From positions 1 through 38,164 of IMG/VR virus record IMGVR_UViG_3300015341_000001: DNA of 38,164 nucleotides. One strand, 5' to 3'. The stretch is from a virus. The translations under genes were made by a program, and so were the position numbers. A model generated the notes under the pieces. It was given only the letters and a program-made list of their open reading frames with translations. It did not search any database and was not told the DNA's origin. This document shows positions 3,115-38,164 of the stretch, one piece after another. Every line of letters begins with the position of its first letter. Within the stretch, counting starts at the first letter, position 1.

Positions 3115-3132
3115 CACCACTCGTTCCACACT

Positions 3133-3164
3133 GGGGCGGCGATTCTTCGGGGGGTCGCCGCCCC
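3133..3164 (+). terminator. Intrinsic terminator or attenuator after the capsid operon
   Basis: 10-bp G/C stem ggggcggcga / tcgccgcccc with a 12-nt loop, followed by tctctt. Confidence 0.6.
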
Positions 3165-3185
3165 TCTCTTACGAAAGGCACGCGC

Positions 3186-3635: not shown

Positions 3636-3985
3636 CGTTCCTCGCGACCGAACGCGTCGACGTGCAGCGCGGCACCACCGTCAACGGCCTCGGCGACGAG
3701 GTGGACAACCCGACGCCGGTGCCGGGCATGCAAGGCATTTCGGTGTCGATCATCGAGAAGAGTCGCCGCATCTTCGGGCAGGACTCGAGCGAGGACCGCA
3801 CCGTACGCTACGCCGACGGACTCGCGCGACCCGGCCTTGACTTCCGCGAAGGCGACCGGCTCATCTCGAAGCGCACCGGGCGAACCTGGTACGTCAACGA
3901 AGTCACCGGCGGAACTCGCACGATCGCGGGCTTCGCTGATCTAGTATTGGACCTACGGACCGGCAACAACCCCGTCAAGGGGTAA
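3632..3985 (+). CDS. Head closure / head-tail joining protein
   Basis: GTG at 3632 overlaps the upstream TGA (GTGA) and sits 5 nt after GGAGG. The ORF track offers 3620 as an alternative start. Called from size and position in the neck module. Confidence 0.55.
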   Translation: MTFLATERVDVQRGTTVNGLGDEVDNPTPVPGMQGISVSIIEKSRRIFGQDSSEDRTVRYADGLARPGLDFREGDRLISKRTGRTWYVNEVTGGTRTIAGFADLVLDLRTGNNPVKG

Positions 3986-4023
3986 CGGTTTCACCACCTC
4001 AACCCGTCAAGGGAGGGCGCATC

Positions 4024-4317
4024 ATGGCTGTACGCATCGTCATCAGCGGTGGCGCCGTACCCGGCCTCGAGTCCGCCCTGTCCGAGAAGATGGAAATTAT
4101 CGTCGCCCGCGTGGTGCGGAACGCTCAGCGTATCGTGCCCGTCGACACGCACAACCTGCAGGACCACATCGAAGGCGACGTCGGCCTCGAGTCCGGCAAG
4201 GTCGTTGGTCGCGTCGGAACCGACGTCGAGTACGGCATCTACGTCGAGCAGGGCACGTCGCGCATGGCGGCGCAGCCGTGGCTTCGCCCAGCGGCGCTGC
4301 AGGCGGGGGCTCTCTGA
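4024..4317 (+). CDS. HK97 gp10-like neck / tail-completion protein
   Basis: Motifs PVDTHNLQDHI and YGIYVEQGTSRMAAQPWLRPA are typical of the HK97 gp10 family. SD GGGAGGG upstream. Confidence 0.8.
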   Translation: MAVRIVISGGAVPGLESALSEKMEIIVARVVRNAQRIVPVDTHNLQDHIEGDVGLESGKVVGRVGTDVEYGIYVEQGTSRMAAQPWLRPAALQAGAL

Positions 4318-4754
4318 TGGTTGACCTCTACCTCGCAGACGACGAAAAGGTCGCCGTCGCCTGGACGAAGCGCCTCGCGGGCATTGACCCGTCGCAAGTC
4401 GCCACGAACCTCCCGGCGCAGTCGCCCGGCTTCGTGCAGATTCGCTCACTCGTGTCGCGCACGGCCGACCGCGACATCAACGCCAAGCGCAACGGCTTCG
4501 TCACCTACGACCTCTGGGCCGTGTCTACCTCGTCGAAGCCGCAGTGGGGCGCAGCGTCGCAGCTCGCAGCGCTCTGCCGCGCCGGGATGGGCGAAGACCA
4601 GCCGTTCGGTCAAGACCTCGACCTCGGAGCCGCGTACCGGCCCGTGAGGGTGCAAGCGGTCTACGCCGAAACCGAGCCCCGCCGAGTCGACGGCGACCCC
4701 GCCGGCTACGCGCGCTACACGTTCGACGCCTTCGTGGATTGGATTCAAGGATGA
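4317..4754 (+). CDS. Tail terminator-like protein
   Basis: ATG at 4317 overlaps the upstream TGA (ATGA). Lies just before the major tail gene. Function is inferred from position only. Confidence 0.5.
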   Translation: MVDLYLADDEKVAVAWTKRLAGIDPSQVATNLPAQSPGFVQIRSLVSRTADRDINAKRNGFVTYDLWAVSTSSKPQWGAASQLAALCRAGMGEDQPFGQDLDLGAAYRPVRVQAVYAETEPRRVDGDPAGYARYTFDAFVDWIQG

Positions 4755-5939: not shown

Positions 5940-6244
5940 GGCGGATTCAGCTATGGGCATGGGCACTCGAGAACCTCGAGGACATCGAGAGCGACTTCTC
6001 GGTCTTCCATCGGGTGCCCGACCCAGAACTGCTCCCCGCCGACCGGTTCATTTCGCTCGCACAGCGCCTCCCGGCGTATAAGGGGATCGTCCGCATGAGA
6101 ATCGAGATCGAGGCCAACGAGCCCAGCTCGTCGCCCAGCCACAACTACAACGCAGGGCGCGAGTCCGTGCGCGAGGTCAAGGCGACCAGCGCGCAGCTCG
6201 CGACCGACCCGGGCCTCGGCGGCTTCTTCGAGGTGGTCGTCTAA
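5583..6244 (+). CDS. Tail assembly chaperone G-T fusion made by -1 programmed frameshift at 5927..5933
   Basis: After a -1 slip on G GGA AAA the -1 frame stays open from 5933 to the TAA at 6242..6244. It reads RLRRIQLWAWALENLEDIESDFSVFHRVPDPELL... and ends overlapping the tape-measure ATG. Confidence 0.75.
5927..5933 (+). promoter_or_regulatory. -1 ribosomal frameshift slippery heptamer G GGA AAA
   Basis: A canonical X XXY YYZ heptamer in the zero frame of the G-like gene (codons aag gga aaa ggc taa). Confidence 0.75.
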
Positions 6245-16303: not shown

Positions 16304-16329
16304 GTCGCCCCATCGGCTAGGATGCACGC

Positions 16330-18039
16330 ATGGCTGCTAACGACCGCGTGCTTTCTGTCGACTACACTACAAACCTCCCACCTTCGTCGGTTCTTTCCGC
16401 GTGGGACAGCCGTAACGACACTCGCAACGACACTCGTTACTTGCCCATCGGTTCAGGTAGCGGCAGCGCAAGCAGCTCATCGCCCGACATCGCACCCATC
16501 TTCATCGAAACGCGAGACACCGGGTTGGCCGTCAAGTCGCCCGACAACCTCCGCACCGGGCTGCCGACAACCACCTCCACTGGCGGCGGTTACGCATCCG
16601 AACTGGCCATTGCCGTCACGGGAACCAAGGGCAGCAAAGTCCTCACCTCAAGCGAACCATCCAAAGTTGCAGGCCTGGGAACAAACCGTTTCGCCGCCGT
16701 CCTGAACCGAAGCAACGGCACCGACGACTTCTTCGTCACCGTCATGAGCAACGACGGAACGAGTCAAATCACTTTGCGGCGCGCTCTCGCGGCTGACTTC
16801 GCAGGCACCCTCTCGGCAAAGTACGATGCCGTTCTCGGCCAACACCTCACGCAAGCTGCCACCAAGGCGTACGTCCAGCACGCGCTCCGAGCGAACGGGG
16901 CGACTAGTGGCCGCGGCGGAATCCTCGCGGGCACATGGGACGCGCAACCGCCGACCTACAACCAGGCATGGCAGCCCAACGCAGCGCTTGTCGCCTACGG
17001 CAAAATCAACTCCGCGGCACCCATCATCCGTACCGAGCAGACCATTCAGTCAACGCACAACGTTCTCAGCACCGTCGACTTCCTTGAACTGCACCCGTGC
17101 GTCGCTTCGTCCGGCGTGCAGACCGGAACTCACAAGCTCGGGCATGGTTCCGAAGCGACCATCTACACGGGGCGCAAGCCGGCAGTGTTGGAGTTCTACA
17201 CTTCCGCGCTTCGAAGTGGCGAGAGTGGGACCGGCTACACTCTGCGCGTCACGGCTGTCGCGGACGGGGTAACGCTCTACGACCGCGAACACGATGCGTT
17301 CCTGACCCGCGTGAACGTTCCCGTTTCCGGTTTCGACAAGGTGACCGTGAGCGTCACCAACAACAACAGCACGGACACTCCTTACGCGCTATACCTGTCT
17401 AACTTGCTTCTCCGCGAGGCAGGCTCGAGCGGCAAGGTCGGACGCGGCAAGGTCGTCGTCTTGGGCGACTCGTGGGGTGCTTACTACGACGGTGCACTCG
17501 GCAAGGCCATCGCCTCCAAGGCTGGCTCTGCCGTGGTTACGAAAGCTCTCGGCGGGACAACTACGGATTGGGCGCTCGACTGGTTCGACAGCTACGTGTT
17601 GCCCGAAAAGCCCGACGAGTGCTGGATTCACTTCTTCACCAACGATGCAAACCAGACATCCGGCACGTACGTCGCCCCCGACGGCACCACGAAACCGCTG
17701 TGGCCGTCTGGGCTGACATCTGACCAGTCAATGGCCCGGTGGCGTCAGAACCTGCTCACGCTGATTTTCCGGTGCCAGCAGGCCGGTATCCGCCCGGTCA
17801 TCTTCATGCCTGGCGGTACGGCCTCGGAGTCGCAGATGCAACGGCACACCGTGTGGGCACAGGGGCTTGAACGTCCCGCCCTGGTCAACTACCAGCCCAC
17901 AACCACCGAGCTGGCAGATGCAACCGCCTACGTGAACGTCGTCGGCAAACGGACCGGTGCCGTCATGCAGGTGGGCACGTCCCCCAAATATGCTTCTGGC
18001 CCTGCGCCGGCGGATGCTTGGGTGACAGCCACCGCCTAG
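16330..18039 (+). CDS. SGNH/GDSL hydrolase-domain protein (putative polysaccharide esterase, tail spike-like)
   Basis: The C-terminal region (~17446..17859) has block I VVVLGDSWG, block II KALGGTTT and block III HFFTNDAN. I did not identify a DxxH block V. The N-terminal 370 aa are S/T/G-rich and beta-type. Confidence 0.8.
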   Translation: MAANDRVLSVDYTTNLPPSSVLSAWDSRNDTRNDTRYLPIGSGSGSASSSSPDIAPIFIETRDTGLAVKSPDNLRTGLPTTTSTGGGYASELAIAVTGTKGSKVLTSSEPSKVAGLGTNRFAAVLNRSNGTDDFFVTVMSNDGTSQITLRRALAADFAGTLSAKYDAVLGQHLTQAATKAYVQHALRANGATSGRGGILAGTWDAQPPTYNQAWQPNAALVAYGKINSAAPIIRTEQTIQSTHNVLSTVDFLELHPCVASSGVQTGTHKLGHGSEATIYTGRKPAVLEFYTSALRSGESGTGYTLRVTAVADGVTLYDREHDAFLTRVNVPVSGFDKVTVSVTNNNSTDTPYALYLSNLLLREAGSSGKVGRGKVVVLGDSWGAYYDGALGKAIASKAGSAVVTKALGGTTTDWALDWFDSYVLPEKPDECWIHFFTNDANQTSGTYVAPDGTTKPLWPSGLTSDQSMARWRQNLLTLIFRCQQAGIRPVIFMPGGTASESQMQRHTVWAQGLERPALVNYQPTTTELADATAYVNVVGKRTGAVMQVGTSPKYASGPAPADAWVTATA

Positions 18040-20130: not shown

Positions 20131-20259
20131 CTACTCGGGTTGAGCTAAGCCAGTTTGGCCACAGGCGAGACAGGGCTCGTCATCGCGCATGTCGCCGCCG
20201 TCGAAGTAGCCTGCTCCAAGGCAGTGGAAACAAACTTCGACCTCTTCGGGGTCGCTCAT
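20131..20259 (-). CDS. 42-aa zinc-ribbon peptide (two CxxCxGxG-like motifs)
   Basis: ATG 20259 overlaps the exonuclease stop (ATGA). Sequence MSDPEEVEVCFHCLGAGYFDGGDMRDDEPCLACGQTGLAQPE. Confidence 0.5.
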   Translation of the reverse strand: MSDPEEVEVCFHCLGAGYFDGGDMRDDEPCLACGQTGLAQPE

Positions 20260-22070
20260 TCGCCCGCCTCGACCCTCGCGTTGAACGCCGCGACCGCAGC
20301 GGGGTCGGCGAGGTCGACCGACTTGTCGATGGCGCGCTTGCCGGTGTTGCGGAACGCGCGACCCTCGGCGGTGATGCGGTTGCCGAGGCGACCGGTCACG
20401 AGGTCGACCGCGTAGATGTGGCACGTGCCGGTTCCCTGCGGCAGGTGAATCACCACGCCCTTCGTGCGCGACAGCTTGAGGTCTTCGCGCTCGTCGGGGC
20501 GCTCCGGGTCGTAGCCCTGCATGCCCGCGTAGTTCTCAAGCTGCAGCGACAGGCTGATGCCGTAGTCGATCGAGCCCGTCTTGATGTCGCTGACGACCCG
20601 CACGGCGCGCTTCATGCCGGGGAACTTCACGAGGCTGATGCGGTCGAGGCGACCGGCGACCTTGCGCTCGTCATCGACGACGAACTTCTCGTACTCGACG
20701 TGCTTGATGCCCGACGCCTCGATCGCACGGCCGTACGCTTCGATGTCAGCGAGGTCCGCCGGCGTGATCTTGCCCTCGGTGAGCAGCTCGGCCACGGCAT
20801 CGATGCCCTCCTTGTCGTAGAGCTCGGCGAGAGCGTGCAGCTCGGTGCCCTTGTTCGCCGCCTCCTTCGAGCCGCCCAGCTCCTCGAGCTCGACAATCAG
20901 GCCGTTGACGCCATCCTTGAACGTCTTTTCGGCGGCGGCGACGAGCGTCGCCAGTTCCCCGACGGCGAGCTTGCCCTTGCGGTCGGCCTTCCGCGCTTTG
21001 GCGATGGCGACGTCGCGGTTGTGCATGAGGTCGCGGATCGTCCCGAGGCGATCGACGATCTCGCCGTCCTCGCCGGGAGTCTGGTCGAGGATGACACCCT
21101 CGAGCAGTTTCCGCTTGGACCACTTCTCGAGGTTCGTCTTGTCCTCGATCAGCTTGATGTACGTCGTGACGCGGGTGTAGCCCTTGAGCTTGCCGTCGGC
21201 GCCCTGCACCTTGTACTGGCCGAGCCCGTTCAGCTTGATGTACGTCGTGACGCGGGTGTAGCCCTTGAGCTTGCCGTCGGCGCCCTGCACCTTGTACTGG
21301 CCGAGCCCGTTCAGCTCGACCTCCGGCTTCGCGTCACTCGGCACCGCGAACGCGGCAGGCTCGGACTCGGCTGCAGCGTCGCTTGTGCCGGCCTCGAAGA
21401 CGCGGCCCTTCTCCGTCTCGACCTCTTCGACCACCTGGTCAACAGCAGACTCGAGCTCGGCCACGGCTTCGGTGGCGTGCTCGACGACAAGCTCGACAGG
21501 TGTCGGCCCCTTTTCGATGACGACCGGCGGCGTGGTCTGCAGCGGCGTGACGCCCTTGACGCGCTTATCGCTGGCGTCTTGCTCGGCGGTCGACGTGGCG
21601 TAGCTGCCGGTCGCCTTGCCGTACGTGTCGTTGTACGCGGCGACGGCCTCGGCGTCGGAGCGGTCGAGCGCTTCGAGCGCGGCCGGGGCGTCACGGCGCA
21701 GACGCTTCGCGCTGACGCGCGCCTTGATCTCCGCGTCAGTGTCGTCGTCGCTCGGAACGGTGACGCCCAGCAGCGCGGCCTCGGCCTTCTTCTTCGCCGC
21801 GGTGGCTGCTGCGATGGCGCCCTTGCTCGAGCCTTTGGCGGTGAGGATGCGGTCGGCCGAAGCAATGATCGACTGGGGTGTCACGCTGTTCTCGACGTCG
21901 GCGGCAGCTTCGGTGACGACGTGCCGGTCAATCGTTTCGAGAATCGGCTTCGGCTTCTTGCTCTTCTTCTTGCCGGCCTTCTTCGCGGCCTTGGCCTCGC
22001 GTTCGGCGAGCTCGGCGGCGAGGGCGGCCTCGCGTTCGGCGAGGCGGCGCTGCTCTTTCTTCTTGCCCAT
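20256..22070 (-). CDS. PD-(D/E)XK (RecB/Cas4/lambda Exo-like) exonuclease with a long low-complexity N-terminal extension
   Basis: Motifs GTELHALAE, AGRLDRI, VSDIKTG (D-x-K) and QLENYAG. ATG 22070 lies 7 nt after GAAGGGA; the ORF-track start at 22121 is a TTG. Confidence 0.8.
   Translation of the reverse strand: MGKKKEQRRLAEREAALAAELAEREAKAAKKAGKKKSKKPKPILETIDRHVVTEAAADVENSVTPQSIIASADRILTAKGSSKGAIAAATAAKKKAEAALLGVTVPSDDDTDAEIKARVSAKRLRRDAPAALEALDRSDAEAVAAYNDTYGKATGSYATSTAEQDASDKRVKGVTPLQTTPPVVIEKGPTPVELVVEHATEAVAELESAVDQVVEEVETEKGRVFEAGTSDAAAESEPAAFAVPSDAKPEVELNGLGQYKVQGADGKLKGYTRVTTYIKLNGLGQYKVQGADGKLKGYTRVTTYIKLIEDKTNLEKWSKRKLLEGVILDQTPGEDGEIVDRLGTIRDLMHNRDVAIAKARKADRKGKLAVGELATLVAAAEKTFKDGVNGLIVELEELGGSKEAANKGTELHALAELYDKEGIDAVAELLTEGKITPADLADIEAYGRAIEASGIKHVEYEKFVVDDERKVAGRLDRISLVKFPGMKRAVRVVSDIKTGSIDYGISLSLQLENYAGMQGYDPERPDEREDLKLSRTKGVVIHLPQGTGTCHIYAVDLVTGRLGNRITAEGRAFRNTGKRAIDKSVDLADPAAVAAFNARVEAGE
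21150..21311. repeat. Perfect 2 x 81-bp tandem duplication inside the exonuclease gene
   Basis: 21150..21230 is identical to 21231..21311, and the next 5 nt also match. It encodes LNGLGQYKVQGADGKLKGYTRVTTYIK twice, in frame. Confidence 0.95.
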
Positions 22071-22104
22071 GGTGCGGTCCCTTCGGGGGTGAGTGTTGAA
22101 CGTA

Positions 22105-22263
22105 TCAGCGACCACCGACAACGGCGTGCGCCGCGTCGAAGGCGTAGATCGTGGAGAGGGTGGCGGCGTAGCCGACCGCCATGAGGCCGATGGTAAGAAC
22201 GACGACCGTCGCGCCTCGGGCGATGCTGCGCCGGCGGTACCAAGCTGCGGTGTGCTTCGTCAT
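22105..22263 (-). CDS. 52-aa single-TM membrane peptide
   Basis: Not in the ORF track (<60 aa). Hand translation gives MTKHTAAWYRRRSIARGATVVVLTIGLMAVGYAATLSTIYAFDAAHAVVGGR. Third positions are G/C-rich and it fills an otherwise empty gap. The SD is weak. Confidence 0.45.
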   Translation of the reverse strand: MTKHTAAWYRRRSIARGATVVVLTIGLMAVGYAATLSTIYAFDAAHAVVGGR

Positions 22264-23152: not shown

Positions 23153-23566
23153 CTACTTCGTCACCGCGCGCAGAACGGCAATCAGGGCCCAGACGGGCAA
23201 CCAGAGGCCGAGCGTGATGAGCGACATGATGAGGTGGAAGGTGTGGTTCATCGGTGCGCGCTGCGGCGGCACGACGAACGCCATGCGCGGCTGCGGCTCC
23301 GAGGCGGCGGGACGCGGGCCGTTGTCCTGCAGGATCGACGACGCGACCCAGCTGACGCCGGTCCACCACCGCGTCGTGCCGTCGCCGTACGCGTACCAGC
23401 CGGGGGGCATGCCGTGCTGGGGGCAAGCCACGTTCGGTCCATCGCTGACTACGCTGGCTGGATCGCAAATGCATGTGTTAAACGGCAGCGGTGCCGGCGT
23501 CGCGGCGTGACCGCTGATCGCCTCGGGCTTGGCGGCGGCGTCGCTGTAGTTCTCGTGCTCGGTCAT
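23153..23566 (-). CDS. Membrane protein with a DUF2510-like GW/WW motif and a C-terminal TM helix
   Basis: PPGWYAYGDGTTRWWTGVSW resembles the DUF2510 motif. C-terminal HLIMSLITLGLWLPVWALIAVL. Confidence 0.7.
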   Translation of the reverse strand: MTEHENYSDAAAKPEAISGHAATPAPLPFNTCICDPASVVSDGPNVACPQHGMPPGWYAYGDGTTRWWTGVSWVASSILQDNGPRPAASEPQPRMAFVVPPQRAPMNHTFHLIMSLITLGLWLPVWALIAVLRAVTK

Positions 23567-23784
23567 TTGATCATCTTCCTTCTGAATGCGATGGCGACCG
23601 CGTGCTCGTTGGACGCGGCCCGTAGCTTGGTTCGGGTGTGACCCATCACGGCCCAGACAGTCGCCTGGCTCGTGTGGATGCGGCGGGCGATCTCGTCGGA
23701 GCGCAGCCCGTCGGCGTGGAGGGTGAGGACTAGCGACTCTTGCGGGGAGAGTGGCTGGTCGGCGAGGTAGCCGGTGCGAGGCAT
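23563..23784 (-). CDS. Stand-alone LuxR/GerE-type HTH DNA-binding protein
   Basis: LSPQESLVLTLHADGLRSDEIARRIHTSQATVWAVMGHTRTKLRAASNEHAVAIAF fits the LuxR_C-like HTH pattern. No receiver or ligand domain. Confidence 0.8.
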   Translation of the reverse strand: MPRTGYLADQPLSPQESLVLTLHADGLRSDEIARRIHTSQATVWAVMGHTRTKLRAASNEHAVAIAFRRKMIK

Positions 23785-29395: not shown

Positions 29396-29598
29396 TTGAC
29401 CAGGGGGGCCACAAGGGCGTAGTCGCTACGCCTTGGTTGACCACTCAAAAGGCTACGAGCAAAACCGCCGACTGAATCCCAGACTCCCTGAACGCCTCGA
29501 GCAAGCATTTCGCCGCACAGGCGGTTGGCGCGGTCGAGCATGGGGTCGAAGCCCCGAGAGAGGCAGGTCGCTTCATAAAGCGGAGTGGGGGTGGTCAT
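29392..29598 (-). CDS. Small hypothetical protein, first gene of the leftward arm
   Basis: Internal ATG 29598 (MTTPTPLYEATCLSRGF...). ATGA overlap with the primase gene. The start choice is uncertain. Confidence 0.5.
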   Translation of the reverse strand: MTTPTPLYEATCLSRGFDPMLDRANRLCGEMLARGVQGVWDSVGGFARSLLSGQPRRSDYALVAPLVK

Positions 29599-29656
29599 AG
29601 AAGGTCCGATCGTTGGGTGTTGCGCTAGTCGTGGGAGCTGGTCTTGCTTGCCGGAT

Positions 29657-29717
29657 GGTCGGCCCCAGTCGGTCACGCGGGAGATGGGGACCCACGCTTC
29701 GTCAACTGGGGCCGACC
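29657..29717. repeat. 13-bp perfect inverted repeat (hairpin) in the leader of the leftward arm
   Basis: ggtcggccccagt (29657..29669) pairs with actggggccgacc (29705..29717), leaving a 35-nt loop. Confidence 0.85.
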
Positions 29718-29754
29718 TTGCCGACTAGAGCAAGGGACCGGAGCACCCGGCTAC

Positions 29755-29783
29755 ATCGTGGCATGCGGTCCTCGTTCCGTCAA
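29755..29783 (-). promoter_or_regulatory. Putative leftward early promoter TTGACG-N17-CACGAT
   Basis: Minus-strand reading: gggcTTGACGgaacgaggaccgcatgcCACGAT, about 150 nt upstream of ATG 29598. Confidence 0.35.
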
Positions 29784-29801
29784 GCCCGTTTCGGTGGGCC
29801 G

Positions 29802-30075
29802 CTTAGCTCGGGGAATCGTGGCTGCTAAGAGTGTAAAAGTGTAAACGATGTAAAGGCTTCTATGTTCCGCTTCTTAGGCGCACACACACAGGCAAGGAGT
29901 TTCAGAGCAACGTTTACATCGTTTACACATTGGGTTTAGGGGGTAGCTAAGCGGAGCCGTCGCCCCTTAGCGCGCCCCGCGCCGCTTGCTAAGCCCGACG
30001 CCCTTCGCTTAGCAACGCCGAAACGCGCCACTCAACTAACGTTCAGGATAAGCGGCGTGATTTGCGGTCGCTAAG
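29802..30075. promoter_or_regulatory. Cluster of GCTAAG / CTTAGC half-sites arranged as spaced palindromes (putative operators)
   Basis: CTTAGC-N16-GCTAAG at 29802..29829, GCTAAG-N14-CTTAGC at 29946..29971, TGCTAAGC-N12-GCTTAGCA at 29987..30014, and a single GCTAAG at 30070..30075 just upstream of the -35 hexamer at 30084. Confidence 0.6.
29831..29928. repeat. TGTAAA iterons and a 16-bp perfect inverted repeat in the A/T-richest part of the genome
   Basis: gTGTAAAa, gTGTAAAc and aTGTAAAg lie at 29831..29854. The arm gtgtaaacgatgtaaa (29839..29854) has its exact reverse complement at 29913..29928. A (CA)5 run sits between them. Confidence 0.85.
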
Positions 30076-30083
30076 AAAAGGCC

Positions 30084-30112
30084 TTGCATCCCGAGTGACG
30101 CGCCACTATGCT
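30084..30112 (+). promoter_or_regulatory. Putative rightward early promoter TTGCAT-N17-TATGCT, ending 6 nt before ATG 30119
   Basis: Hexamers and spacing were read directly. The ATG sits at the expected transcription start, implying a leaderless mRNA. Confidence 0.5.
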
Positions 30113-30118
30113 GGGGGT

Positions 30119-30280
30119 ATGAACCGACTCAACCAGCTCATGACCGTCGTCTGCACCCTCGTTGCGTTCGCAGCATTTGGGTTGTGCCTTCGCTACCTCG
30201 TCTTTGACGACAACCTGGCACTCGGAACATTCTTCGGCTTCGCGGCCGTCATCAACCTCCTGGTCGCTCAGAAGGACTGA
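30119..30280 (+). CDS. 53-aa 2-TM membrane protein (first rightward gene)
   Basis: MNRLNQLMTVVCTLVAFAAFGLCLRYLVFDDNLALGTFFGFAAVINLLVAQKD. The ORF-track TTG start at 30062 would lie upstream of the promoter. Confidence 0.6.
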   Translation: MNRLNQLMTVVCTLVAFAAFGLCLRYLVFDDNLALGTFFGFAAVINLLVAQKD

Positions 30281-30282
30281 CT

Positions 30283-30900
30283 GTGGCCCTCTACGCACAC
30301 ACGCACCTCGGGATGCCGGCACCGCGCCACACGCTCACCGAGGCGGCAGAGGCTGCACGCGTGGCCGTTCGCCAGCTCCCCCCATCCCGCCTCGTCGAGG
30401 TCATCACCAAGTCAGGAGTCACTATGAAAACGTCTCGAGCACCGCTCACCCGCCGCGAGGTCGAGGAGGCCTACGTGCACCCGGAGCCGGAGATGCCGGC
30501 ACGGGAGGTTGTATACGCGTGGCTCGTTGAGGTGGAGCGCGCCCACACGACCGTCGCCTTCGTACTCAAGGCCGAGGCCGCCGGCGCCGACGTCAAGGTC
30601 ACGGTCGCCCGCGGCACGACGCTGCCGAAGTGGCACGTCAACGCGCCGGACTCGAAGCCGAACCCGGGCCCGCCCGTCGACGCGGCGCAGTACCACGGCG
30701 AGGTCGTCGACTCGGTGGTCGTGTGGGCGAGGCGAGCGAAGCGAGGCGAGCGGTGGGTAGACCCTCACGGTGACCGTTGGTTCGATGGCTGGTGCAAGGT
30801 TCGCGCCGAGTGGCACAACGGTCGCATCCACGAGGTCACGGTCAACGGCGCCAAGTCGTCGCTCAAGGCCGCGCTCGAGGCGTTGGGGGCGACGTCGTGA
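30283..30900 (+). CDS. Hypothetical protein
   Basis: GTG lies 6 nt after GAAGGA. 205 aa. An alternative start is ATG 30424, after AGGAG. Confidence 0.6.
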   Translation: MALYAHTHLGMPAPRHTLTEAAEAARVAVRQLPPSRLVEVITKSGVTMKTSRAPLTRREVEEAYVHPEPEMPAREVVYAWLVEVERAHTTVAFVLKAEAAGADVKVTVARGTTLPKWHVNAPDSKPNPGPPVDAAQYHGEVVDSVVVWARRAKRGERWVDPHGDRWFDGWCKVRAEWHNGRIHEVTVNGAKSSLKAALEALGATS

Positions 30901-31887: not shown

Positions 31888-32081
31888 GTGGCAAATGGAA
31901 CGTCGGTTACCTCGACGACACCGACGAGGTTCACGCGTGGCCGGTTGACGATCTCGTTGCGCATGAAGCGCAAAGTTGCGCGTGTGGCCCTAGCCTCGAA
32001 GCCGTTCCGCGACCGGATGGCTCTACAGGGTGGGCCCACTGGCACGCCTCGCTTGATGGTCGCGAAGCGTACGAGAGGTAA
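31884..32081 (+). CDS. Small hypothetical protein
   Basis: ATGA overlap. 65 aa, with HEAQSCACGP...WAHWHASLDGRE. Confidence 0.6.
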   Translation: MSGKWNVGYLDDTDEVHAWPVDDLVAHEAQSCACGPSLEAVPRPDGSTGWAHWHASLDGREAYER

Positions 32082-32090
32082 GATGCGACC

Positions 32091-32288
32091 ATGACTCCCG
32101 AAGAGCTGGCCGTCGGAACGGTCGTGGTGGTCGCCACCGCTGACCACCCCCGCTGTTGCGAGGGCCGAGAAGGCGTGGTTGTGGCTTGCCGTTGCGGTTA
32201 CCGCCACCCCGGTATCGCGGTCGTCGAGCCCTTCGGCACGAAGTCGACGTACCGTTTCAGTGTGGGTCAGCTCGAGGTCAAGTCATGA
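32091..32288 (+). CDS. Small hypothetical protein
   Basis: The ATG is preceded by the conserved 17-mer taagatgcgaccatgac. 65 aa. Confidence 0.6.
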   Translation: MTPEELAVGTVVVVATADHPRCCEGREGVVVACRCGYRHPGIAVVEPFGTKSTYRFSVGQLEVKS

Positions 32289-32536: not shown

Positions 32537-33105
32537 CCGCCGCCCCGAACTTCCGAGAGCTGATCGCCGTGCGCGTGATGCGCGAGCAAGAGTGGGCTTA
32601 CGAGCAGCGCTCGCGCCACCTCTCGTATCGCGAAATGCGCCGGCGCTCCATCCTCCCGACGTACCAAGGCGGCCTCGGCTACGACGTCAGCGAGCACACG
32701 CTCAAGGGCCTCGTCACCGGCTACACGGAACGCATGCGCGAGACGTTGCAGGAGTCGCCGGAGTTCTACATGCACCGCGAGCTCGCCGACCTCGAAGAGC
32801 AGTACCGCGTCGCCGCCGCGCTGGCCGACCCGATCGACCGCAGCGCGACGATGCTGGCCGCCTACGCGTTGGGCTTCGAGTCTGTCGAGGAACTGCTCGC
32901 CGAGTCGCCCGCGTCTGCCGTGCCGCAGGACGGTCGCGTCATCCTTGCCGCGTTGGCGACGATGCGGCAGACAGGCGAGCGCCGCGCGAAGCTGCTCGGC
33001 CTCGACGCCGCGACGACGCACAAGCTCGACGTCACCGTCACCGATGCCGTCGACGCCGAGGTCGCGCGCCTCGCCGCCGAGCTGGACAGCGCCGCCACCT
33101 CGTGA
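32533..33105 (+). CDS. Terminase small subunit (by position)
   Basis: 190 aa, directly upstream of and coupled to the large terminase. Helical and charged. No specific motif recognised. Confidence 0.55.
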   Translation: MTAAPNFRELIAVRVMREQEWAYEQRSRHLSYREMRRRSILPTYQGGLGYDVSEHTLKGLVTGYTERMRETLQESPEFYMHRELADLEEQYRVAAALADPIDRSATMLAAYALGFESVEELLAESPASAVPQDGRVILAALATMRQTGERRAKLLGLDAATTHKLDVTVTDAVDAEVARLAAELDSAATS

Positions 33106-34637
33106 CCCCCCTCGAGCGTGTCCGCGCGAAGCTTGCCGCGACGGCGCCGAACGGCGAGTGGGACGGGCCGGCGTACGCGTCGCCGCTGGGGCGGAAGGCT
33201 GCGACGTATGGCGACCCTCTCGCGTTTGCCGTCGTGTACCTCGGTCACCACCTCCGCGACGCCGACGGCCGCATCACCCTCTCCTCGATCCACGTTGCGT
33301 GGGCCGAGTCCGCGAAGCGGTGGATGCGCGTCGATACGGAGCCGATGGACGATCGCCGGAGTGAGGTCGCTCCGCGCGAGTCGGGCAAATCGACCTGGCA
33401 CTTTCTTCTGCTGCCGATGTGGGCCGCGGCACACGGGCACAAGCGCTTCGCCGCCGCTTTCGCGAACACCCCGTCGCAGGCTGAGACTCAGCTCGCCTCG
33501 TTCAAGGCCGAGCTCGGCAGCAACGTGCTGCTTCGTGCCGATTACCCCGAGCTGTGCGAGCCCAAGACGCGGGGGCGCGGAACGGTGGAGGCTGACCGGG
33601 TGTCGCTCTACCACGCGCAGAGCGGCTTCGTGTTCGCCGCATCGGGGATGGATTCGGCGAACCTCGGGCTCAAGGTCGGCAACACGCGACCCGACCTCCT
33701 TATCATGGACGACATCGAGCCGCACGAGTCGAACTACTCGCCGGCGCTGGCCGCGAAGCGTCTCGACACTTTGCAGTCTGCGATCCTCCCGCTCAACATT
33801 CGCGCGTCGGTGATCCTTGTCGGCACGGTGACGATGCCAGGCAGCGTGGTGCATCAGGTCGCGCAGTACGGCAACGGCTCGCGCGCGCCAGAGCTGCAGT
33901 GGGTCGCCGAACAGCACATCGTTGCGCGCCACTTTCCCGCGCTCGTCACCGAGGACGACGGGTCGCGCGTGTCGATTTGGCCGGAGAAGTGGCCGACACA
34001 GATGCTGCTCGACATGCAGCACACGCGGCACTACCTGAAGAACTACGCCAACGATCCGCGCGGTGGCGAGGGCGGGTACTGGACGATCGAAGACCTGAAG
34101 CGCGAGCCGGCCGACAGCGGCCTGGTCATCACGCACCGGCTTCTCAGCGTCGACCCCGCCGTCACGACAAAGGGGACGAGCGACTTCACCGGCCTCACGG
34201 TCCTCGGGTTCAGTCGCCCGGAAGGCCGCGTCGTGGTCCTCGGTTCGTGGCAGGTGAAGCTCGACCCGGAGAAGCTGCGGGCTCGCGTGCTCGACATCGT
34301 GAACGACTACGACGTCGGGCTGCTGCTGGTCGAGACGAACCAGGGCGGCGACCTTTGGCGCGGCATCTTCCACCACCTACCGATCCCGCTGAAAACCGTG
34401 CACCAGTCCGCGTCGAAGGAGGTACGCGCTGCCGAGGCGCTGAACCACACGCAGCGCGGCAAGGTGACACTCGCCGAGGGCGCCGACCTCGCAGCGCTCG
34501 AGGCGCAGCTCGTGTCGTTCCCGAACGCGCCGCACGACGACATGCTCGACTCGTTCACGTCGGGCGTCATTTACTTCATGTCGACCACGAAGAAGCGCCG
34601 CAGCGGCGTCGGCGCGACGAGCGTCGCGTACGCTTGA
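33102..34637 (+). CDS. Terminase large subunit
   Basis: GTG 33102 overlaps the upstream TGA. Walker A APRESGKST and Walker B DLLIMDDIE, with a nuclease-type C-terminal half. The ORF-track N-terminal extension is Arg-rich and overlaps the small-subunit gene. Confidence 0.9.
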   Translation: MTPLERVRAKLAATAPNGEWDGPAYASPLGRKAATYGDPLAFAVVYLGHHLRDADGRITLSSIHVAWAESAKRWMRVDTEPMDDRRSEVAPRESGKSTWHFLLLPMWAAAHGHKRFAAAFANTPSQAETQLASFKAELGSNVLLRADYPELCEPKTRGRGTVEADRVSLYHAQSGFVFAASGMDSANLGLKVGNTRPDLLIMDDIEPHESNYSPALAAKRLDTLQSAILPLNIRASVILVGTVTMPGSVVHQVAQYGNGSRAPELQWVAEQHIVARHFPALVTEDDGSRVSIWPEKWPTQMLLDMQHTRHYLKNYANDPRGGEGGYWTIEDLKREPADSGLVITHRLLSVDPAVTTKGTSDFTGLTVLGFSRPEGRVVVLGSWQVKLDPEKLRARVLDIVNDYDVGLLLVETNQGGDLWRGIFHHLPIPLKTVHQSASKEVRAAEALNHTQRGKVTLAEGADLAALEAQLVSFPNAPHDDMLDSFTSGVIYFMSTTKKRRSGVGATSVAYA

Positions 34638-34652
34638 CGCGTCACTAAGTAG
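34632..34652. repeat. Left junction repeat, copy A (gcttgacgcgtcactaagtag), spanning the terminase stop
   Basis: Identical 21-mer at 36978..36998. Homology continues imperfectly through ctaggct and atgac.aat. Confidence 0.9.
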
Positions 34653-34662
34653 CGGCTAGGCT
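34634..34662 (+). promoter_or_regulatory. Putative promoter TTGACG-N17-TAGGCT, ending 6 nt before ATG 34669
   Basis: Read directly. The -35 hexamer overlaps the terminase TGA. Confidence 0.5.
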
Positions 34663-34668
34663 GGGCAC

Positions 34669-34962
34669 ATGACGAATGAATCCGACGCCCCCGTGACGCG
34701 ACCCGACCTCGACGCGCTGATCGCAGAACTGCATCGCGAGCTGAATTTGCTCATCGAAGAGGCAGTCGCAGCAGAGCGTGAACGGCAGATCACCATTGGT
34801 TACGACCAGAAACACGACGATGCGCACGGCCTTGACCACCTCTGGGGCTGGGCTCAGCACTACCGGGCCAAGGGTGAGTTCATCAAGTCGCTAGCCCTGT
34901 TTCGGGCTTTTGATGAATCGCAGAAACGCAGGGTCGTGGCGATTGGGAGTGGGACCAGATGA
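34669..34962 (+). CDS. Hypothetical protein with a GYDQKHDDAHGLDHL motif (first gene of cassette 1)
   Basis: 97 aa. Codon third positions are visibly more A/T-rich than in neighbouring genes. Confidence 0.65.
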   Translation: MTNESDAPVTRPDLDALIAELHRELNLLIEEAVAAERERQITIGYDQKHDDAHGLDHLWGWAQHYRAKGEFIKSLALFRAFDESQKRRVVAIGSGTR

Positions 34963-35063
34963 GCCCCGTTGAATGGCACCTGTTGCTGTCTGGCTTCGCA
35001 AGTGGATTTTTGGTTGCTTTGGCCTTAGCAGACGCCGTTGATCGGCATAGGAGCAAGAAATGA
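34959..35063 (+). CDS. 34-aa single-TM peptide
   Basis: ATGA overlap. MSPVEWHLLLSGFASGFLVALALADAVDRHRSKK. Not in the ORF track (short). Confidence 0.45.
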   Translation: MSPVEWHLLLSGFASGFLVALALADAVDRHRSKK

Positions 35064-35149
35064 CCATGGATAACAGCATTCCCGCGGGCATTATGCGCCT
35101 GACTCGTGAGCGCGACGAGTCTCGCGCCGCTCCAACCGCCGAGCAATGA
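35060..35149 (+). CDS. 29-aa peptide
   Basis: ATGA overlaps on both sides. MTMDNSIPAGIMRLTRERDESRAAPTAEQ. Confidence 0.35.
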   Translation: MTMDNSIPAGIMRLTRERDESRAAPTAEQ

Positions 35150-35382
35150 AGAACGCACGAGGCCGGACGTTCGGCACCCCGCTCACTCCGCGCCAGTTCG
35201 ACACGCTGCTGCTACTCGCCAGCGGCGAGACGGGGACGAGCATCGCGGCCGAGCTGGGTGTGCAACCGAACACGGTCCACGTTTTCACGGTGCAGCTCAA
35301 GGCGAAGCTCGGTGCGAAGACGACCGCTCACGCCGTTGCGATCGGCTACCACACCGGCCTGTTGACCGTCGCCCGAGCATAG
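35146..35382 (+). CDS. Stand-alone LuxR/GerE-type HTH DNA-binding protein (second copy in the genome)
   Basis: LTPRQFDTLLLLASGETGTSIAAELGVQPNTVHVFTVQLKAKLGAKTTAHAVAIGY. ATGA overlap with the upstream peptide. Confidence 0.8.
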   Translation: MKNARGRTFGTPLTPRQFDTLLLLASGETGTSIAAELGVQPNTVHVFTVQLKAKLGAKTTAHAVAIGYHTGLLTVARA

Positions 35383-35402
35383 GCCCGCGTCGGGGCCGCA
35401 TC

Positions 35403-35432
35403 CGCTAAGATGCGTCCATGACCAACGCGCCG
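35403..35432. repeat. Right junction repeat, copy A (cgctaagatgcgtccatgaccaacgcgccg), spanning the portal start
   Basis: 29 of 30 nt are identical to 37247..37276. Confidence 0.9.
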
Positions 35433-36983
35433 GAGAAGCTCGACGACATTCAAGCCGACCTCGGCCGCGCGTTCCAGCTCATGGATGACAAGCACGACGG
35501 GTACGTCGCCGCGTTCGAGTACCACGCCGGCACCCGCCACGAGGTTGCGTCGTCCGAGACGGTGCGGAAGATCATCGAGAATAGCGCCGAGGCGCACCCG
35601 ATCAGCCTCGCGCACATCGCCGTCGACGCCCCGTTCGACAAGATCGAGCTCACCGCCATCACGTCGCCCGACGCCGCAGCGTCCGCGCTGCTCGAAACGT
35701 TCTGGCTCGCGAACGACGTCGAGGACGAGTCGGACGACTGGCACCGCAAGGCGGGCATCTACGGTGACTATTACGTCATCCTCGACATCACCGAGACGGA
35801 CAACAACGGCAACGCCACCGAGTTCCGCGCGGTCGGTTCGTCGCCCCTCTCGACCATCACGATGTACTCGTCGAAGGACCAGCGCACCCCGCTCTACAGC
35901 GTGAAGCGGTGGCGTCACGGCCGCGACGCGTACGCGAACGTCTTCTATGACGACGTGACGGTCCGCCTCGTCGCGACGGGCGCCGGCGAGTCGACGCTCG
36001 ACCCGAAGAAGTTCCAGTACGAGTACGACTTGGACCCGACTGACGGCACGCCCATCGAGGACTCGGAGCGACCCAGTCACCCGGGTGGTCGCCAGCTCGT
36101 CGTGCACTACGCCGTGGACAGCAAGCCGTACGGCACGCCGGTGCACGTCAAGGCGTTCGGCCCGCAGGACGCGATCACGAAGGTGTCGGCGACGAACCTC
36201 GCGAACGTCGACGGGCAGGGCTTCGGCGCCCGCTACGCGCTCATGGACCCGATGGCCGAGATCGACGATGACATCGACGATGACTTCGGAACCGATGGCC
36301 CGGGCACCTCGAGCGCGGACAGTGACGGGCTGACGAAGGCGACGACCAAGGCCGTCAAGTCCGGGCCCGGGGCGGTCGCCCTTCTCAAGGGCGTCAAGAG
36401 CGTCGGCGAATGGGCCGCCACCTCGAGCGACGACTTCTTGAAGAACCTCGACTGGTACGTCCGCGTCATGGCTGTCGCCACCGGCGTGCCGCTGTTCGAG
36501 TTCGACCTCAACGGCGAGCAGCCGTCCGGCGAGGCGCGTCGCCGTGCCGAGGGGCGGATCAACCGTCACGTGAAGAAGATCATGCGCGCGCTCGGCGGTG
36601 CCAGCGAAGAGCTCGGCCGTCTCGTGCTGCTCGTGCAGGGCCGCGACGCCAAGGTGGTTGCGGATTTCGCGCCGACCGAGAACGCGATGGACAAAGACGG
36701 CCTCGAGCTCGTGTCGGCGAAGGTCAAGGCGGGCATCCCGCTCAAGGTCGCGCTGCTCGAGCAGGGGTACCCCCAGTCCGAGGTCGACGAGTGGTTCCCC
36801 GAGACGTTCGGCTTTTCCCCCGAGCTGGTTGCCCTTATCGCGTCCGCGCTGCAGCAGCTCGGACAGGCGAAGACGCTCGGCGTCATCACCGACGAGGAAC
36901 TCGCCGACATGCTGCCGACCATCCTTACCGGCGCGCGCGGCGAGGCGGTCTCCGTCGACGTACCAGCCGAGACTGTTGCTTGA
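35418..36983 (+). CDS. Portal protein
   Basis: 521 aa, between the terminase and the MuF-like gene. Acidic, with typical portal size and position. Confidence 0.85.
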   Translation: MTNAPEKLDDIQADLGRAFQLMDDKHDGYVAAFEYHAGTRHEVASSETVRKIIENSAEAHPISLAHIAVDAPFDKIELTAITSPDAAASALLETFWLANDVEDESDDWHRKAGIYGDYYVILDITETDNNGNATEFRAVGSSPLSTITMYSSKDQRTPLYSVKRWRHGRDAYANVFYDDVTVRLVATGAGESTLDPKKFQYEYDLDPTDGTPIEDSERPSHPGGRQLVVHYAVDSKPYGTPVHVKAFGPQDAITKVSATNLANVDGQGFGARYALMDPMAEIDDDIDDDFGTDGPGTSSADSDGLTKATTKAVKSGPGAVALLKGVKSVGEWAATSSDDFLKNLDWYVRVMAVATGVPLFEFDLNGEQPSGEARRRAEGRINRHVKKIMRALGGASEELGRLVLLVQGRDAKVVADFAPTENAMDKDGLELVSAKVKAGIPLKVALLEQGYPQSEVDEWFPETFGFSPELVALIASALQQLGQAKTLGVITDEELADMLPTILTGARGEAVSVDVPAETVA

Positions 36984-36998
36984 CGCGTCACTAAGTAG
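36978..36998. repeat. Left junction repeat, copy B, spanning the portal stop
   Basis: Identical to 34632..34652. Confidence 0.9.
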
Positions 36999-37007
36999 TG
37001 CTAGGCT
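36980..37007 (+). promoter_or_regulatory. Putative promoter TTGACG-N16-TAGGCT, ending 6 nt before ATG 37014
   Basis: Same architecture as the promoter at 34634..34662. Confidence 0.5.
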
Positions 37008-37013
37008 ACAGTC

Positions 37014-37223
37014 ATGACAAATCAGAACCCCAATCAGGCCGAGCTTGTTTTTCAGCGGAACGACATTGTCAAGTTTCCGACTGGGGGAGTGTTCTACAAA
37101 GTGGTCACAATCCGCGGCGATGACATCTACATTCGCATGGCGTCTGGCAACGCAAATCGGGCAAGCACTCGGCGCGTTACGGCAGATCGTATTCGACTCC
37201 ACCGCCGCCCCGAGGTGGGTTGA
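37014..37223 (+). CDS. Small beta-rich hypothetical protein (cassette 2)
   Basis: 69 aa. MTNQNPNQAELVFQRNDIVKFPTGGVFYKVVTIRGDDIYIRM... Codon usage is A/T-richer. Confidence 0.6.
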   Translation: MTNQNPNQAELVFQRNDIVKFPTGGVFYKVVTIRGDDIYIRMASGNANRASTRRVTADRIRLHRRPEVG

Positions 37224-37246
37224 TTACCCAGCAGTGGGGTCCCGTT

Positions 37247-37276
37247 CGCTAAGATGCGTCCATGACTAACGCGCCG
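37247..37276. repeat. Right junction repeat, copy B (duplicate of the portal translation-start region)
   Basis: cgctaagatgcgtccatgactaacgcgccg, compared with 35403..35432. Confidence 0.9.
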
Positions 37277-37288
37277 CAGGCTAACTGA
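37262..37288 (+). other. 8-codon mini-ORF (MTNAPQAN), a copy of the portal 5' end terminating on the MuF-like start (TGATG)
   Basis: atg act aac gcg ccg cag gct aac tga. The final A of the TGA is the A of ATG 37288. Confidence 0.4.
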
Positions 37289-38163
37289 TGAGCGCGGAAC
37301 AGCAGCTCACCGAGCTCGAGGAGCGCGTGCTTGGCACGGTTCGCATCGGCGGGTGGCTCGCTGCCGTCAAGGAGTTGCGGCTGCTGCTCGCGATGGAGTC
37401 GCCCAGCATCCGCCGCGCGCTGTTCGCGCTCTACGCGCCGAAGGTCGAGACGAGCGCGCTAGCCGCCGTAGCCGACGCGTTCGGGCTGGGCCGCGCTGAC
37501 GCGCTCGAGCTGCTGGGCGACGACGCAGCGAAGATCGCGAAGCGCACCGCAAAAAGCGTGCCGGGCAAGGGTGCGCGTGATCCGATCCGCGGGCTGGACA
37601 AGGCGGGCGTTTCCGCGTTGGGCGCCGCGGTTGCGTTGGCGAAGACGGGCGCGGAGCCGGCGACCTACCTCGCGCCGATCTTCGGGCACGCCGACGCCAT
37701 CGAACGACGCGTGTCCGACGCGATCAACCGTGGCGGCAACGAGGGGGCGACACGGGTCGCCGATGTCGCGGGCTTGCCGACGGTGTGGATCGCCGAGCGG
37801 AACGCGTGCGTGCACTGCCTCGCGTACGCCGGTCGCGTTGCGAAGCCTGGCGAGTCATTCCCGGGCGGGCTGACGTACGGCAAGAAGAGCTACTACCCGA
37901 ACCCGCTTCCGACCCCGCCTCGACACCCGCGCTGCCGCTGCACCGTCGAGCCGTTGCTCGATCAGAGCTACGCGGATGCACTCAAGCGCGAGGCCGATCG
38001 GTCGATCCTTCGCGGCATCTCGCTCGAGTCCGAGTCGATGGGCGTTCGCGTCGACGCGGCGAAGCGACTGGTTGACGGCGGGGTAGTCGCCCCGAAGAGC
38101 GTCATCGCGTTTGCGGAACGCGCGGTGAGGTCGGGCAAGTTCCCCACACGTGGTCGGGTGTGA
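37288..38163 (+). CDS. MuF-like (SPP1 gp7 family) head morphogenesis / minor capsid protein
   Basis: ERNACVHCLAYAGRV...PTPPRHPRCRCTVEPL matches the Phage_Mu_F signature (C..C ... PP.HP.CRC). Lies after the portal. Confidence 0.85.
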   Translation: MSAEQQLTELEERVLGTVRIGGWLAAVKELRLLLAMESPSIRRALFALYAPKVETSALAAVADAFGLGRADALELLGDDAAKIAKRTAKSVPGKGARDPIRGLDKAGVSALGAAVALAKTGAEPATYLAPIFGHADAIERRVSDAINRGGNEGATRVADVAGLPTVWIAERNACVHCLAYAGRVAKPGESFPGGLTYGKKSYYPNPLPTPPRHPRCRCTVEPLLDQSYADALKREADRSILRGISLESESMGVRVDAAKRLVDGGVVAPKSVIAFAERAVRSGKFPTRGRV

Positions 38164-38164
38164 A
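38042..38164. repeat. Terminal direct repeat, copy 2
   Basis: Identical to 1..123. Confidence 0.95.

Follow-up and report, generated by a model that had tools for sequence, protein, structure and literature searches.

This analysis concerns four small open reading frames (ORFs), termed orfA to orfD, that lie between the terminase (TerL) and portal genes on a 38,164-nucleotide (nt) stretch of viral DNA (IMG/VR record IMGVR_UViG_3300015341_000001, positions 1 to 38,164), hereafter referred to as the window. We propose, with a probability of roughly 0.7, that these genes are the present occupants of a hypervariable slot for accessory genes, that the slot has fixed boundaries, and that its contents are layered in origin. 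The features listed by a first-pass annotation of the sequence, namely a TTGACG-N17-TAGGCT-N6-ATG arrangement across the TerL stop, four ORFs with an ATGA overlap at each of their three junctions, and a LuxR-type helix-turn-helix (HTH) gene, are all present (Table 1). The window holds a phage genome that assembled as a circle, in which bases 1-123 are identical to bases 38042-38164 (a direct terminal repeat of 123 bp); the resulting unit is 38,041 bp long, and the structural operon therefore runs on from 38164 into the window start. The phage is a siphovirus of ~38 kb related to Microbacterium phages, and its nearest deposited genomes are those of Isperia, Wyvern, and OscarSo (~67% nt identity over TerL and portal).

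The sequences compared with the window were these three cultured relatives (L001, L002, and L003, respectively) and the close relatives L007/L012, L008, L009, L010, L011, and L013, which were found by scanning public collections for the core of the promoter-like motif that follows TerL. L007/L012 is one contig of 38.5 kb, and the other close relatives are mostly metagenome contigs of 1-1.6 kb; five further exact motif matches (L014-L018) were rejected as relatives, being chance occurrences in unrelated sequence. Between the window and L007/L008 and L009-L013, TerL and portal show 90-95% nt identity, with no homology inside the slot. Six different cargo sets, the window’s included, are found between the two genes. 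The window carries orfA, orfB, orfC, and the HTH gene (orfD); the other sets consist of ORF112 and the HTH gene, then ORF67 and ORF50 behind a second copy of the motif (L008/L007), ORF81 and the HTH gene (L010), ORF106 (L009), ORF80 (L011), and ORF101 (L013). The HTH gene thus has other partners in L008/L007 and L010, while L009, L011, and L013 lack it. First slot genes of all six sets begin MTN(E/Q), the breakpoints fall at staggered positions (after codons 3, 5, 7, 15, and 19), and the GC content at third codon positions (GC3) of slot cargo is 0.67-0.73 across the sets compared. Two tandem motif-headed cassettes occupy the slot in L008 (1303-1690; 5982-6369 in L007), the second of which, ORF67 with ORF50, starts directly after the HTH stop.

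The slot is also filled in the cultured relatives. Isperia and Wyvern encode a membrane-anchored, Pro/Ala-rich protein of 161-163 amino acids (aa) between TerL and portal, and OscarSo gp7 has a similar architecture; the first slot genes of the three phages lie at 3242-3733 (L001), 3992-4477 (L002), and 3522-4007 (L003), and each product is anchored by an N-terminal transmembrane (TM) segment, from which a long linker rich in Pro and Ala leads to a Cys-rich tail. OscarSo carries three further slot genes, and the slot genes of all three phages have native GC3 values (0.88-0.94). The terminase-portal junction had been proposed to be an accessory insertion site, and this holds: the cargo differs among near-identical relatives and is in part compositionally foreign. 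Rather than being conserved in all relatives with a host-like GC3, the block varies from one to the next, and GC3 is low in orfA, orfB, and orfC.

Comparison with the closest relatives shows where the mosaic breakpoints fall. In the alignment to L008, homology covers TerL, the motif, and the opening 57 nt of orfA, up to 34725, and is then lost; in L007/L008 it resumes at ~35127, ~20 nt before the orfC stop (..APTAEQ*), and continues on through the HTH gene. This pattern shows that, against these relatives, only ~34726-35125 is novel and that both orfA and orfC are chimeras. On this evidence, orfA is an in-frame fusion of a resident 19-codon start to a foreign domain, and orfC consists of a foreign N-terminal part followed by the last ~7 codons of a resident gene and its ATGA overlap with orfD. 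Similar endings are found in the relatives, where L008 ORF112 ends TAPTAEQ* and L010 ORF81 ends PAPTTEQ*.

Base composition draws similar limits. The segment 34726-35125 has a GC content of 0.568, which is 3.2 standard deviations below the window mean and within the lowest 0.34% of 400-bp tiles (window GC 0.66 overall; tile mean 0.660 +/- 0.029). GC3 is 0.68 in orfA, 0.54 in orfB, and 0.67 in orfC, compared to 0.85 in orfD, 0.88 in TerL, and 0.91 in portal. The description of the first ~430 bp of the region as visibly richer in A/T is consequently accurate for orfA to orfC, and it does not extend to orfD, whose GC3 is native. Elsewhere in the window, 400-bp stretches with a GC content of 0.585 or less are found only at ~7461-8071, inside a long ORF (6244-8541), and at ~29541-30301, where the leftward and rightward gene arms diverge.

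Table 1. Positions of the genes, flanks, and cassettes discussed in the text, in window coordinates.
Feature	Position	Strand	Remarks
TerL gene	33096-34637 (start approximate)	+	phrog_38 E=8.2e-57; 91-93% nt identical to L007/L008
Left flank copy 1 (promoter-like head)	34632-34662	+	GCTTGACGCGTCACTAAGTAGCGGCTAGGCT; read directly
orfA, 97 aa	34669-34962	+	chimeric; codons 1-19 (34669-34725) probably resident, remainder a putatively foreign three-helix domain
Putatively replaced lower-GC block, ~400 bp	34726-35125	+	most of orfA, all of orfB, most of orfC
orfB, 34 aa	34959-35063	+	hydrophobic stretch of TM length; ATGA overlap with orfA
orfC, 29 aa	35060-35149	+	last ~7 codons (..APTAEQ*) a probable resident 3' end, predicted to couple to orfD
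orfD, 78 aa, standalone GerE/LuxR-type HTH	35146-35382	+	PF00196 E=5.7e-10; phrog_3282 E=4.9e-12
Right flank copy 1	35392-35435	+	GGGGCCGCATCCGCTAAGATGCGTCCATGACCAACGCGCCGGAG; repeat family D17, alignment
Portal gene	35418-36983	+	phrog_104 E=3.7e-35; PF05133 E=1.4e-7; stop TGA inside second -35-like hexamer
Left flank copy 2	36978-37007	+	GCTTGACGCGTCACTAAGTAGTGCTAGGCT; heads cassette 2
Cassette 2, portal to MuF-like gene	36978-37287	+	same left and right flanks as cassette 1
orf69, cassette 2 cargo, 69 aa	37014-37223	+	GC3 0.61; no homologs
Right flank copy 2	37236-37288	+	repeat family D17, alignment; includes copy of first five portal codons

Flanking elements and a second cassette

The left boundary of the slot is a promoter-like head. 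Its -35-like hexamer, TTGACG (34634-34639), contains the TerL stop codon TGA (34635-34637) and is followed, after a 17-nt spacer, by a -10-like TAGGCT (34657-34662), with the ATG of orfA (34669) 6 nt further on. A perfect 10-bp palindrome without a loop, TGACGCGTCA, spans 34635-34644. The orfA ATG has no Shine-Dalgarno site and is preceded by an in-frame stop 9 nt upstream. During transcription in mycobacteria and other actinobacteria, a -10-N6-ATG spacing places the start on the A of the ATG, giving rise to a leaderless mRNA, and the missing Shine-Dalgarno site and upstream in-frame stop of orfA fit such an mRNA. We infer from this geometry that the head is a putative SigA-type (housekeeping-sigma) promoter with a leaderless start at orfA.

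An 18-nt core of the head, TTGACGCGTCACTAAGTA, is identical in L008-L013, while the TerL codons upstream of it vary. Isperia has TTGACA-N17-TAGCAT-N6-ATG right after the TerL stop, and Wyvern and OscarSo have analogous arrangements, which argues that the head belongs to the slot and not to acquired DNA. A first gene of leaderless type behind a promoter-like head after TerL is thus ancestral to the phage group, and the suggestion that a promoter had been acquired along with the cassette does not hold up. No prophage or host copy of the motif was found in 185,579 reference genomes, and the large ORFs scanned in the window, which encode endonuclease VII, exonuclease, and primase/helicase, include no integrase; consequently, nothing suggests expression from a prophage, and these large ORFs gave no evidence of a temperate lifestyle.

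The left flank occurs twice in the window. The two copies, at 34632-34662 and 36978-37007, share nearly the same 30-31 nt, GCTTGACGCGTCACTAAGTAG(CG/T)GCTAGGCT. Each overlaps the stop of a structural gene (GCT TGA), that of TerL for the first copy and of portal for the second, and each is followed 6 bases on by the ATG of a low-GC3 ORF (orfA and the 69-codon ORF at 37014-37223, respectively). A 19-mer common to both copies, TTGACGCGTCACTAAGTAG, is found 2 times against 0.00 expected. More general forms of the pattern are also overrepresented in the window: the actinobacterial-type TTGACN-N16-18-TANNNT occurs 3 times (0.46 expected), TANNNT-N6-ATGAC 6 times (0.12 expected), and GCTANGNT-N6-ATG 5 times (0.03 expected). 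One of the six TANNNT-N6-ATGAC sites is a complete TTGACA-N17-TAACGT-N6-ATG on the minus strand (22298-22261). Sites with this leaderless geometry of -10-like element, N6, and ATG lie at 22298-22261 (-), 32079-32095, 16316-16332, 35406-35422, and 37250-37266; ATGAC (Met-Thr) follows in most of the family, and three members share TAAGATGCG(T/A)CCATGAC, which also codes for a 3-codon mini-ORF, ATG CGN CCA TGA, over the downstream start.

At the right boundary, a -10-like TAAGAT (35406-35411) is followed after 6 nt by the portal ATG at 35418. The ~20-nt core of this flank is conserved in all relatives compared. A 3-codon mini-ORF, ATGCGTCCATGA, overlaps the portal start, and the portal gene has no Shine-Dalgarno site. 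The 44-nt flank (35392-35435) recurs at 37236-37279 with 86% identity, such that both flanks are duplicated in the window (repeat families D14 and D17). The duplicated portal codons of the second copy form the beginning of a mini-ORF of 8 codons, MTNAPQAN* (37262-37288). It ends in a TGATG, where its stop and the MuF-like ATG at 37288 overlap. These second copies enclose cassette 2, the cargo of which, orf69, begins MTNQNP, a start that it shares with the L009 slot cargo. L008 lacks cassette 2, and its portal gene adjoins the MuF-like gene with nothing in between, indicating that the cassette is an insertion in the window; the matching start of orf69 indicates that it was derived from a TerL-portal slot and took both flanks along. 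Cassette 2 thus shows that a cassette can move as a whole, flanks included.

No terminator-like site was found at 35382-35418 or at 37223-37288, leaving neither cassette closed, and the four flank copies fold no better than shuffled sequences (z = -0.72, -0.68, -1.23, and +0.42). Transcripts from the head should, in the absence of a terminator after the cargo, continue into portal. It is conceivable, though doubtful, that the post-TerL motif is mainly a structural-operon (late or booster) promoter for portal and the virion genes, with the slot genes riding along rather than acting as autonomous morons. Read-through past cargo that ends in neither a terminator nor a stable hairpin would be expected under such a scheme, which also accommodates the conservation of a promoter-like sequence at this position across the phage group, cultured relatives included, and the location of the second motif copy ahead of the MuF-like and later structural genes. 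However, portal and the mini-ORF before the MuF-like gene have a -10-like/N6/ATG element of their own, and a canonical TTGAC(A/G)-N17-TANNNT would be expected to be recognised by the host holoenzyme as soon as infection begins, unlike a typical late promoter. A booster function is in any case compatible with, and not exclusive of, a slot for exchangeable accessory genes.

The cargo genes

A search for families and homologs of the four products placed orfA in a domain family and orfD among the GerE-type HTH proteins and found no homolog for orfB or orfC. The orfA protein contains the motif ER..Q..GY..HDD.HG..HL...A..Y, and its core (residues ~28-90) belongs to a widespread domain family of ~60 aa with 147 representative clusters at E<=1e-3, the members of which are standalone proteins of 57-130 aa or domains inside larger proteins (consensus ER.RQ.E.GYDA.HDD.HG.DHLL.WA..YA.RG). 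An AlphaFold model is a confident three-helix bundle (pLDDT 94.1; helices 14-42, 47-67, and 71-94). No Pfam, NCBIfam, PHROG-function, or PADLOC family was found for orfA. Foldseek matches in the PDB all had E>1, giving no informative relative, while the profile matched only designed helical repeats among PDB sequences and the structure matches in BFVD were the same uncharacterised actinophage homologs. A word-indexed protein search with orfA and orfD returned only the proteins themselves or near-identical sequences. Phage homologs of orfA sit among non-structural genes of Microbacterium and Gordonia phages. We rejected a MazG-like nucleotide pyrophosphohydrolase as a candidate: there is no Pfam match, and orfA aligns only to residues ~1-57 of Count gp98, a non-catalytic N-terminal extension, leaving the PRA-PH/MazG catalytic domain of that protein (132-193) unmatched.

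Neither orfB nor orfC has a homolog in any library or collection searched, including phage records at E<=10. A Shine-Dalgarno-like GGGAG (34945-34949) lies 9 nt ahead of the orfB ATG and a GGAG (35050-35053) 6 nt ahead of that of orfC, and the orfB product reaches a Kyte-Doolittle maximum of 1.9 in a 19-aa window. Nothing supported the idea that the two arose by frameshift from longer orfA homologs or from the relatives’ cargo. A less likely alternative is that only orfA and orfD are genes and that orfB and orfC are non-functional debris of recombination. Such debris would explain why homologs are absent and why the C-terminus of orfC looks like a remnant of the replaced resident gene, and orfB has the lowest GC3 of the four. 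It would not explain why both ORFs have well-spaced Shine-Dalgarno-like motifs and exact ATGA overlaps, or why orfB encodes a clean hydrophobic segment of TM length; moreover, orfD, which lacks a Shine-Dalgarno site, apparently needs the ribosomes that arrive via orfC.

orfD matches PF00196 with 39.1 bits (gathering cutoff 23.5) over profile positions 2-54 of 57, and a DNA-binding regulator is the most defensible reading of this family assignment. It is 97% identical in aa and 92% in nt sequence to the L010 copy and 85% identical in aa sequence to that of L008, such that the window’s HTH gene is the L010-type allele. Because it has no Shine-Dalgarno site of its own and is reached by its ATGA overlap with orfC, its translation probably depends on the coupling chain. 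For orfD, the NCBIfam matches were confined to generic response-regulator HTH entries, PADLOC found nothing in the slot proteins but a weak HTH match, and a scan of genomes for the HTH family yielded only two unrelated matches in alphaproteobacterial metagenome-assembled genomes.

A second GerE/LuxR-type HTH ORF, encoding 73 aa, lies in the leftward replication arm of the window (23563-23784, minus strand) and is 31% identical to orfD (local hidden Markov model, HMM); neither GerE gene has a homolog in deposited actinophage genomes. The palindrome and the GerE genes co-occur in this lineage and are both absent from the cultured relatives, a contrast of one lineage against another only. A more elaborate and rather unlikely proposal is that the two flanks (the promoter with palindrome TGACGCGTCA, and TAAGAT-N6-ATGACNAAC) are the actinophage counterpart of the PeSL cassettes discussed below. 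They would then form a self-contained leaderless expression-and-recombination module that hops small genes between structural-operon junctions, with the palindrome bound by orfD and by its paralog at 23563-23784, which would together control all of the cassettes.

A probable layered origin and its alternatives

Taking the flanks and the mosaic together, we envisage the slot working as follows. At the left boundary, a SigA-type promoter over the TerL stop would produce an mRNA starting at the A of the first cargo ATG, and at the right boundary the ~20-nt TAAGAT-N6-ATG element would carry the portal start. Cargo would be exchanged among co-circulating relatives by recombination in these conserved flanks. 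In the lineage of the window, the ~400-bp segment of lower GC has then probably replaced the interior of the resident first gene. This replacement would have joined a foreign three-helix domain, the one with the HDD motif, to the 19 resident start codons in frame, added orfB, a small ORF for a membrane peptide with its own Shine-Dalgarno site, and ended in orfC so as to keep the resident last codons and the ATGA overlap, preserving translational coupling to orfD. The chain of overlaps would thereby deliver ribosomes from a leaderless orfA to orfD. The cargo most likely provides non-essential accessory functions that modulate the host or phage, with orfD acting as a transcription regulator.

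Several observations weigh against parts of this account. A generic promoter scan with the E. coli consensus made no call at the head, the -10 of which, TAGGCT, matches at 3/6 positions. The TAAGAT element of the right flank has no conserved -35 and, because the mini-ORF overlaps the portal start, could be a translational device rather than a promoter. As orfB and orfC lack homologs, the case for their being coding is made only by their Shine-Dalgarno sites and overlaps. The relatives are mostly short metagenome contigs, and the direction of replacement, that is, which allele is ancestral, is read only from composition. Finally, the window is itself a metagenome assembly, with the block backed by one contig only.

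The first-pass annotation had viewed the four genes as one horizontally acquired functional system, possibly serving exclusion, regulation, or anti-defence from its own promoter. We consider this improbable. All four ORFs are indeed chained by ATGA overlaps behind one promoter-like head, and in L022 a GerE HTH gene 36% identical to orfD comes directly after the closest homolog of orfA (P0002, 54% identity). Yet the head, codons 1-19 of orfA, the end of orfC, and the HTH gene are common to relatives with different interiors, so a single inserted four-gene unit does not describe the locus. orfD occurs without orfA to orfC in L008 and L010, is missing altogether from three other relatives, and has a native GC3 unlike that of orfA to orfC; in addition, the search with PADLOC yielded no informative defence-system match. 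An orfD-like HTH neighbour was found at just 1 of ~22 independent orfA-family loci using the local GerE HMM, a narrow model that could miss very divergent GerE neighbours. We therefore rejected orfA and GerE as a conserved two-gene module, since the pairing is found only in L022 and the ~21 other orfA-family loci lack it. The L022 pair itself (3001-3749) consists of a 176-aa orfA-family protein and a 73-aa GerE HTH protein with a 4-bp overlap between their genes, on an unrelated, temperate-looking phage contig (cI-like HTH, antirepressor, YqaJ).

A chimeric metagenome assembly as the source of the low-GC block is highly improbable: although only one known contig encodes precisely this orfA protein and its closest homolog among ~15 billion proteins is just 54% identical, both junctions are in frame and leave intact ORFs whose overlaps, and with them the coupling to orfD, are preserved, and relatives carry equally divergent cargo at exactly the same junctions.

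No Rfam families or tRNAs were found in or near the region. Outside it, an 81-bp tandem duplication (21146-21307; 80/81 identical, 99%), equivalent to 27 codons in frame, is located in an exonuclease-like gene (20256-22121, minus strand; phrog_466).

Comparison with known cassettes

The locus is a clean natural example of small accessory genes replacing one another within a phage structural operon. Its value as an example lies in the fixed regulatory boundaries, in breakpoints staggered a few codons into the first gene, and in a relocated cassette that has dragged five portal codons along. Should the head prove to be an active leaderless promoter, it would also offer a compact, portable expression signal for the engineering of actinobacterial phages. 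Two items of cargo may deserve attention: the three-helix domain (ER..Q..GY..HDD.HG..HL), which has no Pfam family or structural relative, and the phage-borne standalone GerE-type regulator.

The morons of lambdoid phages are reportedly extra genes in late operons that have an atypical composition and their own promoter and terminator (Juhala et al. 2000; Hendrix et al. 2000). Similar to these, the slot and cassette 2 place extra genes between conserved late-operon genes and are variable among relatives, cassette 2 being absent in L008, and composition is atypical for 34726-35125 and orf69, although not for orfD. A putative promoter precedes the cargo, but it forms part of the conserved slot rather than of the acquired DNA. 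Unlike morons, the cargo is not followed by a terminator, and the new DNA appears to have replaced the interior of a resident gene instead of inserting between genes. With respect to its regulator, the locus can be compared to the C-terminal HTH family of GerE and LuxR-FixJ (PF00196): orfD covers nearly the full domain and consists of the HTH domain alone, as does B. subtilis GerE, but differs from these relatives in being encoded by a phage.

The PeSL cassettes of T4-type phages are mobile regulatory cassettes (Arbiol et al. 2010, PMC2839356; Comeau et al. 2014, PMC4122927). In both systems, small ORFan genes lie behind repeated sigma70-like promoter motifs that begin at the upstream gene’s stop codon. 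Recombination between motif copies, which accounts for insertions, deletions, and replacements among close relatives of T4-type phages, may act here too, as it would fit the tandem cassettes in L008, the window’s relocated cassette with its two flanks, and the staggered breakpoints. Unlike PeSL cassettes, the flanks described here have no stem-loop or terminator component; the setting is the structural operon of an actinobacterial siphovirus rather than the hyperplastic regions of a myovirus, and starts are of the leaderless type, whereas those of PeSL cassettes are led by Shine-Dalgarno sites.

The closest counterpart is found in Microbacterium phages of clusters EC, EF, and EI and in phage Hendrix, in which genes inserted between TerL and portal and repeated intergenic motifs ahead of such genes have been described (Jacobs-Sera et al. 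2020, PMC7302621). The locus belongs to this class of insertion, having non-structural small ORFs and repeated upstream motifs, and our findings do not overturn current understanding, as both features were already documented there. As in those phages, small ORFs of unknown function split a normally adjacent TerL-portal pair, same-orientation repeated motifs lie just upstream of the inserted genes, and one such gene adjoins the MuF-like gene. The motifs differ in sequence, with the one described here consisting of a -35/-10 pair over the upstream stop codon; it is located 6 nt before a leaderless-type ATG, whereas the Microbacterium phage motif lies 21-30 nt upstream of a start that has a ribosome-binding site. 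Beyond what was described for these phages, the present locus adds population-level swapping of cargo among near-identical genomes and the duplication of both flanks.

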